In this document: piece after piece, positions 58,630 to 64,000 of the stretch | How the letters are laid out: each line of letters opens with the position of its first letter | Position numbering within the stretch: position 1 is the stretch's first letter | Source: Candidatus Multivoradales bacterium | Lineage (GTDB): Bacteria > Acidobacteriota > Thermoanaerobaculia > Multivoradales > JAHEKO01 | Reading direction: 5' to 3' | Length of the DNA stretch: 64,000 bases | Assembly (NCBI GenBank): GCA_965223155.1 | Contig: CBDCVR010000015.1 | Location: forward strand, 800,001-864,000 | Notes under the pieces: model-generated | The model's database searches: none | What the model was told of the DNA's origin: nothing | The model's input: only the letters and a program-made list of their open reading frames with translations | Made by a program: the position numbers and the translations under genes

Positions 58630-60687
58630 CTAGGCGGCATCCGAGCGCACGACCCATACCAGGCCGGCCACGGCGAGCACCGTGCAGAGTCCGGCGGGAC
58701 CGGGCGCGCCGAGGATCCAGAAGCCGATTCCAAAGAGGCTGCCGAAGACCACGACCAGGCCGGCCGCGAAACGGGTCAGCATCGCACCGGCCCGATCCGG
58801 CGAGGAATCGACATACGGGCGCCAGCCCGGACCCGCCGGACGCACCTTGCGAGCGAAGGCCTCGAGCACCCGCCGATCGTTCTGCGGTCCCCAGATCGCC
58901 GTCGGCAGCCACGCCGTCAGGCTCACCGCAGCGACGATGAGAATCTTCGCCCAGGCGGCGATCTCGGTCACGAAGAAGGGGTTGGTGCCTCCCAGGAGCC
59001 GCGGCGCGCCGCCGAGCTCGAGCCCTAGCGCGGTCAGTGTCGTGGCCCCAAGCGCGGCGAGCTCGGCATGGGCCGTCACTCGCGGCCAGTACCAGCGCAG
59101 GGCGGTTACACTGCCCAGGCCGGCGCCAAGGGTAATGAGAAAGCGCCACACCGTGGCGATGTTCTGGATGAAGAGCGCTGTACTGCCCGCCAGAACCGCG
59201 ATCAGCACGATCGCGATCCGGCTCGCCGTGACGTAGTGGGCCGGCGCGGCATCGCGCTTCACGAACCTCTGGTAGAGATCCCGGACAAGATACGACGCGC
59301 CCCAGTTGGTATGGGTGTCGATCGTGCTCATGAAGGCCGCCAGCAGGCTGGCGACGACCAGTCCCAGAATTCCGGAGGGCAAGTTCCTCCGCATCATGAG
59401 CGGATACGCCATCTCGCGATCGTCCAAGGTCAGGAGAATCGAGCCCAGCTCGAACCTCCGAACCGTCCCGCAGACGGCCTCGAGCGGCAGCTCGCCGCCA
59501 CCGCGCCAGCCGGACAGTTCGAACGGCGACCGGCCCGGCACAGGTTCTCCGCCGATCTCGAGGCGGCATGACGACGGCAGGCCGGTAACGACGAGCCGTG
59601 CGTCTCGTCCGAGATCGATCGGTCCGGGCGAGACGACAACTGTGGCCGCGCCCTCCGGAAGGGCCAGCTCGAAGCTCCGTTCCGGGAAACTCGTACCCTC
59701 CGTGAGCCCGGCCGGCTCCGCTCGCGGATAGACCACCAGCGCCGCCAGGGCGACCAGAATCCAGGGCCAGGGCCGGAGAGCGTTGTGGGCGATGGCGAAC
59801 CAAAGACTGGCACCCTGCGCTTCGCCCTCGCTTCGGCACGAGGCCAGACGCTGCACGATATAGCCCTGCCCCTCGGCCAGGCGCCACCAGCCGGCGACCA
59901 GAAGGACGACAAAGTAGATCCAGCTGATGGATCCCTCTCCGGAAGGCAGGAAGCCGAGAAGCTCCTGGGCTTCGGCGCTTCCCCCGACCGAGCTCTCGAG
60001 CGCTCCCAGCAGGCCCTCGCCGGACGTCGAAGCGGGTTCGCTCAGCGCGCCGACGCCGCCGAAGTCGGCCAGGACGAACCAAGCCAGCGCCAAGGCGCCG
60101 ACGACACCCATCGCGAACTGCACGAGATCGGTCACGACCACCGAGCGCAAGCCCCCGAGGGTCGTGTAGGCAACCGAGGCGATCAGACAGACGGCGATCA
60201 CGAACACCGGCTCGACCGAGAAGAAGGAGCGCGTGATCTTGACCATCGCGGCGATCACCCAGGCCATCGTCAAGCAGTTGACGAAGAGGCCGAAGTAGAT
60301 TGCCTTGAAGGCCCGGAGCACTGCGGCCGCGCGGCCGCCGTAGCGCAGCTCCACAATCTCCGCGTCCGTCAGCACACCCGACCGGCGCCAGAGCCGGGCG
60401 AAGAAGAACGTCGCCGCCAGGTGAGCGATCGCCCAGTTCCACCAAATCCAATTGCCGCTGATGCCGTCGGCCGCGACCAAGCCGGTGACCGCCAGCGGCG
60501 TATCCGCCGCAAAGGTGGTAGCGACCATCGAGGTTCCGGCCAGCCACCAGGGGAGGTTCCGGCCGCCGAGGAAGAAGTTCTCGAGATCGGTGCTGGCCCG
60601 CCTGGAAAAATACGCTCCGACCGCGATAGCGCAAAGCAAGTACAGCCCGATAATCAGAAAATCGATGCCGACCAGGCCGGGACTCAT
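58630..60687 (-). CDS. Sodium:solute symporter family protein with extracellular insertion
   Basis: FFLGGRNLPWWLAGTSMVATTFAADTP, GGLRSVVVTD, AAFMSTIDTHTNWG. Confidence 0.9.
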   Translation of the reverse strand: MSPGLVGIDFLIIGLYLLCAIAVGAYFSRRASTDLENFFLGGRNLPWWLAGTSMVATTFAADTPLAVTGLVAADGISGNWIWWNWAIAHLAATFFFARLWRRSGVLTDAEIVELRYGGRAAAVLRAFKAIYFGLFVNCLTMAWVIAAMVKITRSFFSVEPVFVIAVCLIASVAYTTLGGLRSVVVTDLVQFAMGVVGALALAWFVLADFGGVGALSEPASTSGEGLLGALESSVGGSAEAQELLGFLPSGEGSISWIYFVVLLVAGWWRLAEGQGYIVQRLASCRSEGEAQGASLWFAIAHNALRPWPWILVALAALVVYPRAEPAGLTEGTSFPERSFELALPEGAATVVVSPGPIDLGRDARLVVTGLPSSCRLEIGGEPVPGRSPFELSGWRGGGELPLEAVCGTVRRFELGSILLTLDDREMAYPLMMRRNLPSGILGLVVASLLAAFMSTIDTHTNWGASYLVRDLYQRFVKRDAAPAHYVTASRIAIVLIAVLAGSTALFIQNIATVWRFLITLGAGLGSVTALRWYWPRVTAHAELAALGATTLTALGLELGGAPRLLGGTNPFFVTEIAAWAKILIVAAVSLTAWLPTAIWGPQNDRRVLEAFARKVRPAGPGWRPYVDSSPDRAGAMLTRFAAGLVVVFGSLFGIGFWILGAPGPAGLCTVLAVAGLVWVVRSDAA

Positions 60688-60723
60688 CGAGGCACAGGGT
60701 ATCGCCTGGGGGCAGGCGAGCCC

Positions 60724-60756
60724 AAACGAAGAAAGCCCCGGTCGAGCGACCGGGGC
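60724..60756 (-). terminator. Intrinsic terminator
   Basis: Minus strand GCCCCGGTC-gctc-GACCGGGGC (9-bp perfect stem) followed by TTTCTTCGTTT. Confidence 0.85.
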
Positions 60757-60829
60757 CAGGTGGTTTGTTAGGTGGCGTTGGGCTTCCTAGTAGGGGCCCT
60801 TCCAGTGCGCCACGCGCGAAGAGGATTCC

Positions 60830-60874
60830 CTAAAGGGACGCCACCTCCATCAAACCGCGTTTCTCAGATACCAC
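60830..60874 (-). CDS. Putative 14-aa small peptide MVSEKRGLMEVASL
   Basis: AGAAAGGAGG, 7-nt spacer, GTG start, 14 codons, TAG stop. Confidence 0.5.
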   Translation of the reverse strand: MVSEKRGLMEVASL

Positions 60875-60999
60875 TGGACCACCTCCTTTCTGGGCGAATC
60901 CGCAAACTGGCGGGACCCAAGTCCGCCCGATCCTCCCGACCGCCCAAGCCGTTTGGACCGCCGCGTCTCCAGTGCGAAGCCGCGGGCACGACTGGCTGC

Positions 61000-61028
61000 A
61001 TGTTGCAGCAAAGATTTTCCTCTGTCAA
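61000..61028 (-). promoter_or_regulatory. Sigma70-type promoter of the small transcript
   Basis: TTGACA (61028-61023), 17-nt spacer, CAACAT (61005-61000). Confidence 0.65.
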
Positions 61029-61080
61029 TCCTGGAATCTCCCTCCCTCATGCCGAGTTACGCCGACTTTGAGCAGGGCGA

Positions 61081-61998
61081 TCAGAACGGGAGCGGCTCTC
61101 CGCTGGTCTCGGTCTGCGCCTTGTGAAGTTCCTGCAGCCGCTCGGTCACCGGTCCTCGCGCTCCATCGCCGATCTGCCGGCCATCCACCTCGAGGATCGG
61201 GCTCAGCTCGCCGACGGTGCCCGTGGTGAAGGCCTCGTCCGCCGTGTAGAGCTCCGAGAGGCTGAGGTTGCGCTCGCGCGAGGGAATGTCGTTGTCCCGC
61301 GCCAGCTCGAGGACGACGCCGCGGGTAATGCCGGGCAGGCAGCTATCGGCGTGCGGCGTCTGAAGCTCGCCGCGGCGCACCAGAAACAGGTTGGTGGCGT
61401 TGGTTTCGGACAGAAACCCATTGAGATCCAACATGACCGCGTCGTCTACGCCGGCGACGTTGGCCTCGATCTTGGCCAGGATGTTGTTGATCAGGTTGTT
61501 GTGATGGATCTTCGAATCGAGGGTCTGGGGCGAATTGCGCCGTACCGAAGCCGTGACCAGCCGCACTCCCTTCGAGGCATAGATCGGCGCTTTCCACTCG
61601 GCCAAGACGATCAGGCAGCACCCCATGCGGTTGAACTCCGGGCTCATGCCGGAGGTGACCTTGGGACCACGAGTCAAGGTCAGCCGGAGGTGGGCACCGT
61701 CCCGCATGCCGTTGGCCTCCAACGTTTCGAAGATGGCCCCCTTGATCTCGTCGCGGGACGGCACACCGTCGAACGCCATGGTGTGGGCCGAGGCCTCGAG
61801 CCGGTCGAGGTGGGCGTCGAGCTGGAAGATCCGGCCGTCGTAGACCCTGAGACCCTCCCAGACCGCGTCGCCGCCCTGGACGACGCTGTCGAAGACCGAC
61901 ACCGAGGCCAGGTGACGGGATACCAGATCGCCACCCACGTGAACCTTGATGTCGGCATTGCGGGGATCCGGAAGCTCGTCCGGGCGGTAGCTCCTCAT
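61081..61998 (-). CDS. Aminotransferase class IV (branched-chain amino acid aminotransferase-like)
   Basis: GDAVWEGLR, HLDRL, SKIHHNN, ETNATNLF, CLPGITR, DEAFTTGT. Confidence 0.92.
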   Translation of the reverse strand: MRSYRPDELPDPRNADIKVHVGGDLVSRHLASVSVFDSVVQGGDAVWEGLRVYDGRIFQLDAHLDRLEASAHTMAFDGVPSRDEIKGAIFETLEANGMRDGAHLRLTLTRGPKVTSGMSPEFNRMGCCLIVLAEWKAPIYASKGVRLVTASVRRNSPQTLDSKIHHNNLINNILAKIEANVAGVDDAVMLDLNGFLSETNATNLFLVRRGELQTPHADSCLPGITRGVVLELARDNDIPSRERNLSLSELYTADEAFTTGTVGELSPILEVDGRQIGDGARGPVTERLQELHKAQTETSGEPLPF

Positions 61999-62008
61999 GC
62001 TGAGTCTC

Positions 62009-62737
62009 CTAGCCGGCCGCCCGAATGGCCCGAGCGTACAGACGCTGGTAATGAGGGAGGCACTCTTCAAGCAGGCCTTCGAGGTGCTCGGGAACGGGTT
62101 CGGCCTTGGGTCGGTAGGGCATGAAGCCGGTCGAGCGGTGCACGTTCCGGTACCAGTGGGGCGCCCAGACCCCGTCCTCGGCTCTGGCGCCCGCCGGCCA
62201 GGACAGCATCGCGGGATCGAAGTCGATTCCGATCGCCTGGCACAATCGCTCGAGCACCCCGGCCGGATCCAACAGAATCTCGCGCGAATCCACGACCGGC
62301 GGATCCTGGCCGCGGGCGACGAGGTCATCCAGGAGCTCGGTCTGATCGGCCAGCCCGGTGTCTCCGATCCCCGGATTCGGTACCTGGTGCACCAGCGAGG
62401 TCAGGACTTCGGCCGGATCCCGGATCAAGAGCACGTTGACGGTCTCATCCAGAAACGAGGGTTCGAGACCGCGCAAGTGGTGGGCCATCTGCTTGAAGAA
62501 CAGAACCGCCCGGTCGCACGGTCCCAGCACGACCTCTCGCACCACTCGCTCGCCGTCGGTGTCCATCGCGGCCAGCACCTCGTCACGGCCGGGGTGGTCG
62601 ACACCAGACAAAGCGAGGTAGTAGCCGTAGAGCGGCTCGTCCACGACCCGTGTGTCCGAGCGCTGCGCGAACGAGTACATGAGCGCCGTCGAGACATTGC
62701 GCGGACCCGACCAGAGACACAGCCGTAGGACCGACAT
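62009..62737 (-). CDS. Sulfotransferase-like P-loop protein
   Basis: LWSGPRNVSTALMYSF, DEPLY, KQMAHH, LIRDP, DGVWAPHWY. Confidence 0.85.
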   Translation of the reverse strand: MSVLRLCLWSGPRNVSTALMYSFAQRSDTRVVDEPLYGYYLALSGVDHPGRDEVLAAMDTDGERVVREVVLGPCDRAVLFFKQMAHHLRGLEPSFLDETVNVLLIRDPAEVLTSLVHQVPNPGIGDTGLADQTELLDDLVARGQDPPVVDSREILLDPAGVLERLCQAIGIDFDPAMLSWPAGARAEDGVWAPHWYRNVHRSTGFMPYRPKAEPVPEHLEGLLEECLPHYQRLYARAIRAAG

Positions 62738-62749
62738 CGAGGACGTACT

Positions 62750-64000
62750 CTATGCGATCTTGAGGGCGACGATGGTGCGGTCGTCCGAGATCTCGACCCC
62801 GCGCGAGAACGCCCGCACACTCTCGAGGACGCCACGGGCCAGATCCTCCGCCGACACGCCCGCCAGGCGCTCGAGGGTGCCGTGGAGACGCTCCGATCCG
62901 AACTCCTGATCGCGGCCATTGAGGCTCTCGTCGACGCCGTCCGAAGCCAGGACGATCACGTCGCCGGCCTTCAGGTCAATCTCGTGCTGCCGGTAGCTGC
63001 GCTCGCCCAAGAGCCCCAGTGGCACGCCGCTCGCCTCGATCGGCGTCACCGCGCTTTTCCGCACGAGCAGCGGATAAGGCAGCCCGGAGTTAGCGATCGT
63101 CAGGCGGCGCCGATCTCGATCGTAGACCCCGAAGGCCAGGGCCACGAAACGGCTATCGAACCCCAGCCGGATGAGTTTGCGGTTCATCTCTTCCAAGACC
63201 TCGGCGGGAGGCAGGCACTTGCCAGTGGCAAACTCCCTCAGGGTTCCAACCGCCAGCGATCCAAGGAGAGCCGCCGAGGTGCCCTTGCCGGCAACGTCCC
63301 CGACGGCAAAGGCCAGCCTGCCCTCGCCGTACGGAAAGGAGTCGTAGAAATCTCCACCCAGATAGCGCGCGGGCTCGTAGGCAACGCCGATGTCGATGCC
63401 TTCGATGGCGAGCATGGTCTTGGGTAGGAGCTGTTTCTGTACCTCGCGAGCGGTCGACAGGTCCTGCTCGAGGCGCAGCTCATCCTGGCGAAGCTTCTCG
63501 TAGAGGCGGGCGTTCTCGAGCGCGATCGCGAGCGACGTCGCCAGCGTCGACAAGAGCTGCTGGTGCCGGTTGCTGAAAGCGTTGTAGCTCGCGCTCTCGA
63601 GATCAATGACCCCGATCATCCGGTCCTTGAAGACCAGCGGAACCACGAGCTCGGAGCGCACCCGGAGCTCGGTGTTACAGCGGGCGTATCTGGGGTCGAG
63701 ATCCACGTTGGGCACGCGGATGGGTTGGCGCAGCGCCGCGGCCGTGCCGCAGATGCCCTGGCCTAGGGCAACCGGCTCGAGCGAACGCACGGGCCGGCCG
63801 TCCTCGAAAACCGAAAAGAAGGGCTCCAGGTGCTGCTTCGTCTCCTCCCACAGGAAGATGGAGAAGACGTCGTAGTCGACGATTCGTCCCAGCCGGTCGG
63901 CGACTTTGCGCAAGAGCTCACGCCGGTTGAGGATCGCCGTCATCTCGCGGCTGATCTCGTGGAGCAAGGACAGCGAGCGCGCTTGCTCGCGCATGCGCTG
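62750..64000 (-). CDS. GAF plus PP2C (SpoIIE/RsbU-type) phosphatase, 5' truncated by window
   Basis: GAF (GQGICG...SELVVPL), ALENARLY, GGDFYD, GDVAGKG, SDGV, DDRT. Confidence 0.92.
   Translation of the reverse strand, partial: QRMREQARSLSLLHEISREMTAILNRRELLRKVADRLGRIVDYDVFSIFLWEETKQHLEPFFSVFEDGRPVRSLEPVALGQGICGTAAALRQPIRVPNVDLDPRYARCNTELRVRSELVVPLVFKDRMIGVIDLESASYNAFSNRHQQLLSTLATSLAIALENARLYEKLRQDELRLEQDLSTAREVQKQLLPKTMLAIEGIDIGVAYEPARYLGGDFYDSFPYGEGRLAFAVGDVAGKGTSAALLGSLAVGTLREFATGKCLPPAEVLEEMNRKLIRLGFDSRFVALAFGVYDRDRRRLTIANSGLPYPLLVRKSAVTPIEASGVPLGLLGERSYRQHEIDLKAGDVIVLASDGVDESLNGRDQEFGSERLHGTLERLAGVSAEDLARGVLESVRAFSRGVEISDDRTIVALKIA

Follow-up and report, generated by a model that had tools for sequence, protein, structure and literature searches.

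The genes rreB and rreR, described in alpha-proteobacteria in 2016, are among the few bacterial genes that are defined by an extreme ribosome-binding site, i.e., a stretch of 16-17 nucleotides (nt) that is complementary to the 16S rRNA tail, has the G of a GTG start codon as its last base and is followed by a short open reading frame (sORF) of 14 or 18 codons (Hahn et al., RNA Biol 14:1353, PMC5711450). According to the accessible part of that report, rreB of Bradyrhizobium has an RpoD-like promoter and a terminator, and its mRNA of 165 nt contains 17 nt that are perfectly complementary to the 16S 3' end and a 14-codon sORF. Its RNA is found mainly in the ribosome pellet, where it co-sediments with the 30S subunit, it is translated weakly, and replacing its GUG by UAG prolongs its half-life from 10 to 37 min. 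Overexpression of rreB left growth unaffected and ribosomes are far more numerous than the RNA; because of the missing growth effect the authors argue against simple ribosome titration or recruitment as a major function, and they call the function of rreB "elusive". The synthetic RreB and RreR peptides were unstructured, both are conserved within their clades, and outside Bradyrhizobiaceae the genes have no conserved genomic context (PMC5711450). Here we describe an element with the same architecture in a 64,000-nt stretch of DNA (hereafter the window) of Candidatus Multivoradales bacterium (Acidobacteriota; assembly GCA_965223155.1, contig CBDCVR010000015.1, positions 800,001 to 864,000). It occupies the minus strand of window positions 60724-61028, and we think it probable that it is an rre-type small mRNA outside the alpha-proteobacteria.

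At the level of sequence, the element has every feature by which rre genes are recognised. Its extended Shine-Dalgarno (SD) sequence, AGAAAGGAGGTGGTCCAG (60874..60891, minus strand), is a complement of the 3' tail of the genome's own 16S rRNA, as against at least 16 nt upstream of an sORF in the described genes: since the 16S gene ends in ...CTGGATCACCTCCTTTCT, pairing is possible over 18 contiguous positions, with a single G-U where a perfect complement has A. The last complementary base is the first base of the start codon (...GGTCCAG followed by TG, with the G at 60874), from which a very short sORF of 14 codons plus stop runs from GTG at 60874-60872 to TAG at 60832-60830 (60830..60874, minus strand; product MVSEKRGLMEVASL). 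The initial annotation of this region had placed promoter hexamers, extended SD, ORF and terminator on the minus strand and had proposed an 18-nt pairing with one G-U; all these coordinates hold, and the pairing is borne out against the 16S end of this very genome.

The computed duplex energy of the extended SD is -32.9 kcal/mol with the 18-nt tail and -21.1 kcal/mol with its last 13 nt. Over both strands of the 4.0-Mb genome (about 8 million positions), 18-nt runs occur at the element and in the antisense of the 16S gene only, the next-longest complements of the tail having 16 nt (one site), 15 nt (one site) and 14 nt (five sites), and an 18-nt complement is far beyond chance. It had also been suggested that most genes of the window have weak SD sequences or none. 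A median SD-tail energy of -3.8 kcal/mol (best -17.9) among the other ORFs fits this as a crude test, though the 5167 stop-to-stop ORFs of at least 250 aa on which it was computed are too unreliable a set to carry the statement further, as many are spurious, start positions are uncertain and antisense frames are included; because of this antisense contamination we make no claim of an unusual excess of TAG stops.

Such an identity could also be left behind by a decayed 16S rRNA gene, and the 18 nt shared (with one transition) with the antisense of the 16S 3' end are all that speaks for this origin. The flanks on both sides resemble neither 16S nor its spacer, no rRNA is matched by Rfam in the window, and the element has a conserved structure and ORF of its own in 120 genomes. 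Given that the flanks do not continue the 16S gene and that Rfam finds no rRNA, this is not a decayed piece of rRNA, an origin whose probability we regard as negligible.

The single 16-nt complement, ACGAAGGAGGTGGTCTGG, lies outside the window on the minus strand of contig C15 (C15:696042-696059), inside a long frame (..ATKEVVWFFDRD..). It was considered as a further element and dropped, as a site within a long open frame is presumably a chance match.

The element is kept as a gene of its own across the order. BLASTN with the intergenic region gave one match each in 39 of 61 genomes, own genome included. A covariance model (R1) trained on 27 copies, which matches the window at 60745-60968, recovered the element in 120 of the 151 genomes of the order, including 100 of the 126 genomes with a completeness of 90% or more, and always as one match per genome save in the own genome, which has two; across a sample of the phylum, 24 of 151 genomes had R1 matches. 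(The tallies 39/61 and 120/151 include the unpublished genome G005, and locus L031, from the unpublished G209, is one row in the comparisons, identical over the stretch shown to the public L079; no conclusion depends on G005 or G209.) An alignment of 20 copies has a conserved -10-like box, a GC-rich 5' block, a near-invariant SD-GTG core, the ORF, a conserved 3' block AACCCAACGCCACC..ACAAACC and the terminator. A larger, model-guided alignment contains 89 rows, the top 75 of which are of the full-length type (73 distinct sequences).

Direct reading of the minus strand places the -35 hexamer TTGACA at 61023..61028 and, after a 17-nt spacer, the -10-like hexamer CAACAT at 61000..61005; transcription would start near 60993 and yield an RNA of about 270 nt extending to 60724. 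A stricter sigma-70 scan of the region returned no promoter-like site and did not call the CAACAT element, and in the relatives TTGACA followed after 16-18 nt by a CANNAT-like hexamer (score at least 9/12) precedes 48 of 72 distinct copies vs 2 of 72 shuffled upstream regions. At the other end, an intrinsic terminator (60724..60757) consists of a stem-loop at 60757-60734, with a 10-bp stem (8 G-C) and a 4-nt loop, and the tract TTCTTCGTTT; in a crude scan, a hairpin with a T-run was found downstream in 53 of 73 relatives. A separate transcript, the remaining rre hallmark, is predicted from promoter and terminator signals that are present and conserved, all of them read from sequence; a search of sequencing runs turned up the DNA in four runs of one study and in no RNA run. 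By these marks the small transcription unit proposed in the initial annotation is a single-copy small gene, conserved across the order, with promoter and terminator motifs of its own, and is probably transcribed separately.

The pairing with the rRNA is also maintained in the relatives. Scored against the 16S tail of the genome studied here, the run of 18 nt is kept in 54 of the 73 distinct copies and at least 13 nt are kept in 73 of 73. The substitutions that do occur opposite a U of the 16S tail are almost exclusively between A and G: A in 58, G in 14 and T in 1 copy at SD position 1; A in 52, G in 20 and C in 1 at position 3; A in 62 and G in 11 at position 4; G in 51 and A in 22 at position 13. 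As both A and G pair with U, this pattern argues for selection on pairing with the rRNA.

The micro-ORF, too, proved real as a frame, with frame, start and stop conserved. All 75 full-length rows have an in-frame start 7-11 nt after GGAGG (71 GTG, 3 ATG and 1 TTG), and in 71 of the 75 it is a GTG at 7 nt; where the GTG is lost (L199, L200 and L222), an ATG 3 nt downstream keeps the frame. The distance from the start to a conserved GAG GTG is 6, 7, 8, 9 or 10 codons, i.e., five length classes that are all in frame, and 73 of 75 copies have exactly three codons (9 nt) between GAGGTG and the stop, whichever stop codon is used (TAG 49, TAA 21, TGA 4). ORF length is 14 codons in the window and 11-15 in the order, and more distant acidobacterial variants have ATG or GTG at other spacings and ORFs of 11-19 codons that end in x-E-V-[A/P/V]-x-x-stop. 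Between lineages the peptide sequence is mostly unconserved and the conserved codons coincide with paired nucleotides. A frame that is kept around a variable peptide, with its conserved codons in helices, therefore points to constraint on the places where translation begins and ends, which we infer to be under stronger selection than the peptide.

The same data bear on whether the 14-aa peptide is itself the effector, the RNA features merely tuning its synthesis. Conservation of frame and stop would be expected of such a peptide, as would the order-wide pattern M-x-x-[DE]-K-[RHP]-G-[LFS]-[MVT]-E-V-A-[SAT]-x, which is accompanied by some synonymous changes (GGT/GGC/GGA; TTG/TTA/CTG), and RreB and RreR are likewise conserved within their clades, according to the available part of their description. 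RreB (MS.TKRCHLAEAAR, locus L123) and the window peptide moreover both have 14 aa and K-R at positions 5-6, a likeness that is suggestive only. However, the conserved codons GGTTTG and GGAGGTGGCG both lie in helices, the N-terminal parts differ wholly between lineages in ORFs of 6 to 27 codons, and, as far as that description goes, the synthetic RreB and RreR peptides were unstructured and putative RreB overproduction did not affect growth. We therefore find a peptide effector doubtful.

The structure of the RNA was assessed on the model-guided alignment of 89 rows, which is fitted to R1 and so somewhat favours the consensus structure. Within it, 93.7% of cells are paired vs 87.7% in shuffles, and compensatory changes occur in 35 of 45 pairs vs a shuffled mean of 17.2, with 0 of 500 shuffles reaching 35; a control in which partners were slid by 1-3 columns gave 10-17 compensatory pairs. 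Two parts stand out. A structured, GC-rich 5' domain (60892..60968, minus strand; helices 1-4) forms a three-way junction that ends a few nucleotides before the extended SD, and 18 of its 20 pairs are compensatory, with 92-99.6% of cells paired. Further downstream, a long-range helix (helices 7-10) joins ORF codons 7-12 (GGTTTG..GGAGGTGGCG) to a CGCCACC..AAACC strand that closely precedes the terminator; in helices 7-9, 11 of 15 pairs covary. Its 5' strand, GGTTTGATGGAGGTGGCG, lies within the ORF (60839..60856, minus strand), and its 3' strand, CGCCACCTAACAAACC (60762..60777, minus strand), contributes an anti-SD-like CACC strand in the pairs GGTGGCG-CGCCACC and GGTTT-AAACC. The centroid fold of the window RNA leaves the extended SD unpaired in its 5' part.

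The long-range helix encloses a second SD-like motif, GGAGGTG (60848-60842, minus strand), which lies within its 5' strand, inside the ORF and 9 nt before the stop. Its computed energy with the 16S tail is -14.2 kcal/mol in the window (row L039) vs -5.2 kcal/mol in shuffles, and acidobacterial forms have -9 to -17 kcal/mol where shuffles have -2 to -6; a p of at most 0.05 against shuffles was reached in 34 of 91 rows, which are not independent of each other. A ribosome whose P site holds the last sense codon would have GGAGG at a spacing of 8 nt, as it would at a start site. The second SD is paired with the anti-SD-like 3' strand in the ground-state fold, and both frame and stop are conserved relative to it, which directs attention to how ribosomes are captured and released more than to the peptide.

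Could the 3' strand itself be the active part? The RNA would then be a translation-gated riboregulator, whose anti-SD-like CGCCACC..ACAAACC strand is freed by translation or termination and serves as a seed against the SDs of other mRNAs or against its own first SD. Covariation in helices 7-9 supports the helix that holds this strand, few parts of the RNA are as well conserved as the strand, and 73 of 75 copies keep the stop at the same distance of 9 nt behind GAGGTG. The own genome moreover contains the 3' domain a second time, in a weaker version devoid of an extended SD, which hints that the domain may act alone. However, such a helix might just as well stabilise the RNA or form a roadblock, and the accessible part of the rreB paper reports no effect in trans (PMC5711450), so that we consider a riboregulator of this kind unlikely.

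The element lies in a 393-bp gap (60688-61080) between a class IV aminotransferase (PF01063), upstream with respect to the element, and a sodium:solute symporter (PF00474), downstream. A short ORF with a strong SD and a terminator about 37 nt before the symporter start could be a leader peptide or attenuator of that gene. Yet tblastn on 19 loci of relatives found the symporter downstream in one and the aminotransferase upstream in seven, no cluster of flanking ORFs was present in more than 12 of 46 loci, and the alpha-proteobacterial genes, as far as described, offer no conserved context outside Bradyrhizobiaceae either. Since the neighbours are unconserved, we do not regard the element as a symporter leader, a role that we hold to be very improbable.

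Set beside rreB, as far as its description was accessible, the element has in common with it the predicted promoter and terminator, the 16S complement ending in base 1 of GTG, the 14-codon sORF and the unconserved context. They differ in phylum, and no sequence similarity was detected between them beyond the ribosome-binding site. The rreB mRNA has its SD near the 5' end and, with only 165 nt in all, no room for a 5' domain of about 75 nt, whereas the acidobacterial RNA of about 270 nt has such a structured domain before the SD. The complement of rreB is perfect whereas that of the element has one G-U, and the second SD-like motif is strong in the element but weak in rreB-type loci (-5.6 kcal/mol in L123 and -4.0 in L117). 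With rreR of the Rhodobacter/Roseobacter clade, again judging from the accessible part of the paper, the element shares the extended SD ending in the G of GTG and a short conserved sORF; the rreR sORF, in contrast, has 18 codons (MSR.VLERGVGT...) and encodes an unrelated peptide. Rfam recognises neither the rreR loci L052 and L063 nor the window element.

The first lead to related families was a weak Rfam match. At gathering thresholds the whole window gave nothing, in keeping with the expectation that standard annotation would miss the element, and at E ≤ 10 positions 60300-61400 gave chance-level matches apart from CC2171 (RF01867), a Caulobacter small RNA (sRNA) whose consensus begins GAAAGGAGGUGAUCCAGUG and ends in a terminator; ARAGORN found no tmRNA or tRNA gene in 59000-63000. 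All four loci that pass the CC2171 threshold (L047, L069, L082 and L091) have an extended SD, a GTG and an ORF of 21-25 codons. CC2171 was validated by Northern blot in Methylorubrum, according to the accessible part of that study (bioRxiv 10.1101/2022.01.24.477521). The actinobacterial sRNA family Ms_IGR-5 (RF02471) has a consensus with GGAAGGAGGUGGUCC near its 5' end and GUGAGGUGGCUGCCCGCUAG later, and the same "E-V-x-x-x-stop" end as the acidobacterial ORFs; its consensus line, taken by itself, suggests that Ms_IGR-5 is an rre-type small mRNA. It is described in the available sources as expressed and NAD-capped in M. smegmatis, validated by RNA-seq in Streptomyces lividans TK24, and uncharacterised. 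Four of the 151 genomes of the phylum sample, and none of 14 control genomes, gave sub-threshold matches to this family. Two acidobacterial loci, L079:1777-1987 (51.6 bits) and L068:2623-2818 (47.7 bits), pass its 45-bit threshold, and both have an extended SD and an sORF ending in EV-x-x-x-stop. Thus, two "orphan" sRNA families for which expression data exist match loci with rre architecture.

A further parallel is STAB-SD, the 5' mRNA stabiliser of Bacillus thuringiensis cryIIIA, in which a perfect SD-like sequence, GAAAGGAGG, pairs with the 16S tail and ties the fate of the RNA to ribosome binding. STAB-SD has no start codon behind it and stabilises a long downstream mRNA. The element, by contrast, has a start codon 7 nt on, and in rreB, from what is available of its description, the half-life is shorter when ribosomes engage at the start. 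As a possible relative, Pos19 of Rhodobacter sphaeroides was dropped in view of its ORF of about 50 codons and of reports confined to that species.

How such an RNA might work can be sketched from rreB. By analogy, the single-stranded 5' part of the extended SD would seed pairing with the 16S tail and lead to a tight hold on the 30S subunit, the over-long SD and the GTG start would keep translation weak, and engagement of the ribosome at the start codon would set the lifetime of the RNA; very tight 30S binding, a central suggestion of the initial annotation, can be argued by this analogy only. In our reading, the act of translation would matter rather than the peptide. An elongating ribosome would have to unzip the long-range helix. 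On termination its P site would hold the last sense codon at a distance of 8 nt from GGAGG, a geometry like that of initiation; there its anti-SD could pair again with the second SD, and for that time the CACC strand on the 3' side would be free.

The initial annotation had proposed a ribosome sponge among other roles, and storage or titration of 30S subunits through a stable SD-tail duplex would indeed be in line with a duplex of -32.9 kcal/mol at a site unique in the genome, with the predominance of rreB on 30S (in the part of its description at hand) and with a perfect -35 hexamer in 48 of 72 relatives. A sponge has no need, however, of a conserved frame, start and stop position, and the same description records that rreB overexpression left growth unchanged, that ribosomes greatly outnumber the RNA and that its authors argue against simple recruitment. 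The sponge thus loses most of its appeal, and we consider it quite unlikely.

Several points weigh against reading the element as an rre-type small mRNA, or against details of that reading. The class is defined by its ribosome-binding site, and on present sequences the element would belong to it without demonstrable homology to rreB or rreR, while every mechanistic step proposed above is taken from Bradyrhizobium rreB. Neither Rfam family claims the element: it scores 16.4 bits (E = 0.63; the same score genome-wide) vs the 75-bit threshold of CC2171, with only SD and hairpin aligning, and Ms_IGR-5 has no match in the region (E ≤ 10) or in the own genome (E ≤ 0.001). The 18-nt count presumes that the mature 16S rRNA ends where the gene ends and that the CUGG, which we take to lie at the base of helix 45, is available for pairing, and the counts of 54/73 and 73/73 presume that the relatives share the 16S tail of this genome. 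R1 has no match in 31 of the 151 genomes of the order. Two of the 75 copies depart from the stop rule: L109 stops four codons after GAGGTG, and L019:1494-1730 is the only one with no in-frame stop in the aligned stretch, its TAA being one base out of frame, which may reflect an error of sequencing or decay of this copy. No covariation is seen in the small hairpin that is predicted over the SD (helices 5 and 6), which is thereby neither supported nor excluded, and this qualifies any statement on the accessibility of the SD. In energy, the fold of the single sequence does not surpass shuffles (z = -0.40), and structural support comes from covariation only. The second SD occurs in part of the rreR loci and is absent from several alpha-proteobacterial loci, and hence is not a universal feature of the class. 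We nevertheless consider that the combination of tail-length complement, GTG, conserved short frame and separate transcription signals makes an rre-type small mRNA the probable identity of the element.

The arrangement reaches beyond both the order and the alpha-proteobacteria. When one genome per bacterial species was searched for RAAGGAGGTGRTCCAGTG, at least 118 stretches came up, 80 of which were listed; among the matches listed, 74 are followed by ORFs of 6-27 codons, four by ordinary long ORFs, and two are cut by the end of the locus. Their labels comprise many alpha-proteobacteria, several Acidobacteriota, Planctomycetota, a Gemmatimonadota, a Krumholzibacteriia and two Burkholderiales. 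Known genes are recovered among the matches listed as well, namely Afipia broomeae ATCC 49717 (L123), the rreB homologue of Fig. 2 in the accessible part of PMC5711450, and Rhodobacterales with the 18-aa MSR.VLERGVGT ORFs of rreR. NCBIfam contains no family for the five alpha- or beta-proteobacterial sORF peptides that were compared with it. In the literature searched we found no report of rre genes outside alpha-proteobacteria, with the proviso that the supplementary figures of Hahn et al. could list further taxa, and the citations of that paper found there come from the same laboratory only; a search by exact motif strings returned nothing relevant.

On a joint reading of these data, rre-type RNAs may form one ancient, cross-phylum class of ribosome-engaging RNAs that spans alpha-proteobacteria (rreB, rreR and CC2171), Acidobacteriota, Actinobacteria (Ms_IGR-5), Planctomycetota, Gemmatimonadota and some Burkholderiales, and that works as a two-site ribosome trap. 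In such a trap the tail-length SD may capture the 30S subunit at a weak GTG, and the second SD, which an internal anti-SD mimic otherwise masks and which has the last sense codon 8 nt downstream, may re-capture the same ribosome at a stop that is mostly UAG. This is a speculative proposal to which we would give a small chance; if true, the RNA would report or buffer the translation state of the cell, i.e., free 30S, integrity of the 16S tail, or capacity for termination or recycling.

The initial annotation had implied that the arrangement was new, which it is not, as the kind was published for alpha-proteobacteria in 2016; what is new is a member in another phylum together with anatomical detail (the 5' domain, the second, masked SD and the links to Rfam families). 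Conserved as a single copy in 120 of the 151 genomes from one acidobacterial order, and recurring under several other phylum labels, the architecture extends well past the clade in which it was found. For genome annotation, searching for complements of the 16S tail outside rRNA operons finds rre-type genes where Rfam fails.

A few further loci may be mentioned. The second R1 match in the own genome (33.5 bits, E = 6.7e-6) lies outside the window at L024:1467-1630, i.e., contig C14:656643-656806, minus strand. This match, similar to the element's 3' half (..GCGGCTTGATGGAGGTGGCCCCCGGTAGCGGGG.. ..GGGGGGAACCCAGTGCC..), lacks an extended SD and has a TAG out of frame with GAGGTG; a possible reading is that the 3' domain has a non-coding paralogue here. 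The locus with the stop one codon later, L109:4028-4266, is a full-length copy of the acidobacterial type (173 bits) under the label Candidatus Krumholzibacteriia, for which transfer, shared ancestry or a binning error are possible origins. Mis-binning seems to apply to L061:7577-7594, on a contig labelled Cytophagales that ends inside an ORF starting MSRKVLE, of the Rhodobacterales rreR type. Finally, the acidobacterial loci L036, L049, L064 and L085 have an extended SD and GTG followed by six codons (MRY[SWG]LR or MRYGKS); in these minimal versions of the arrangement a GAGG overlaps the start codon, about 12 nt before the stop.

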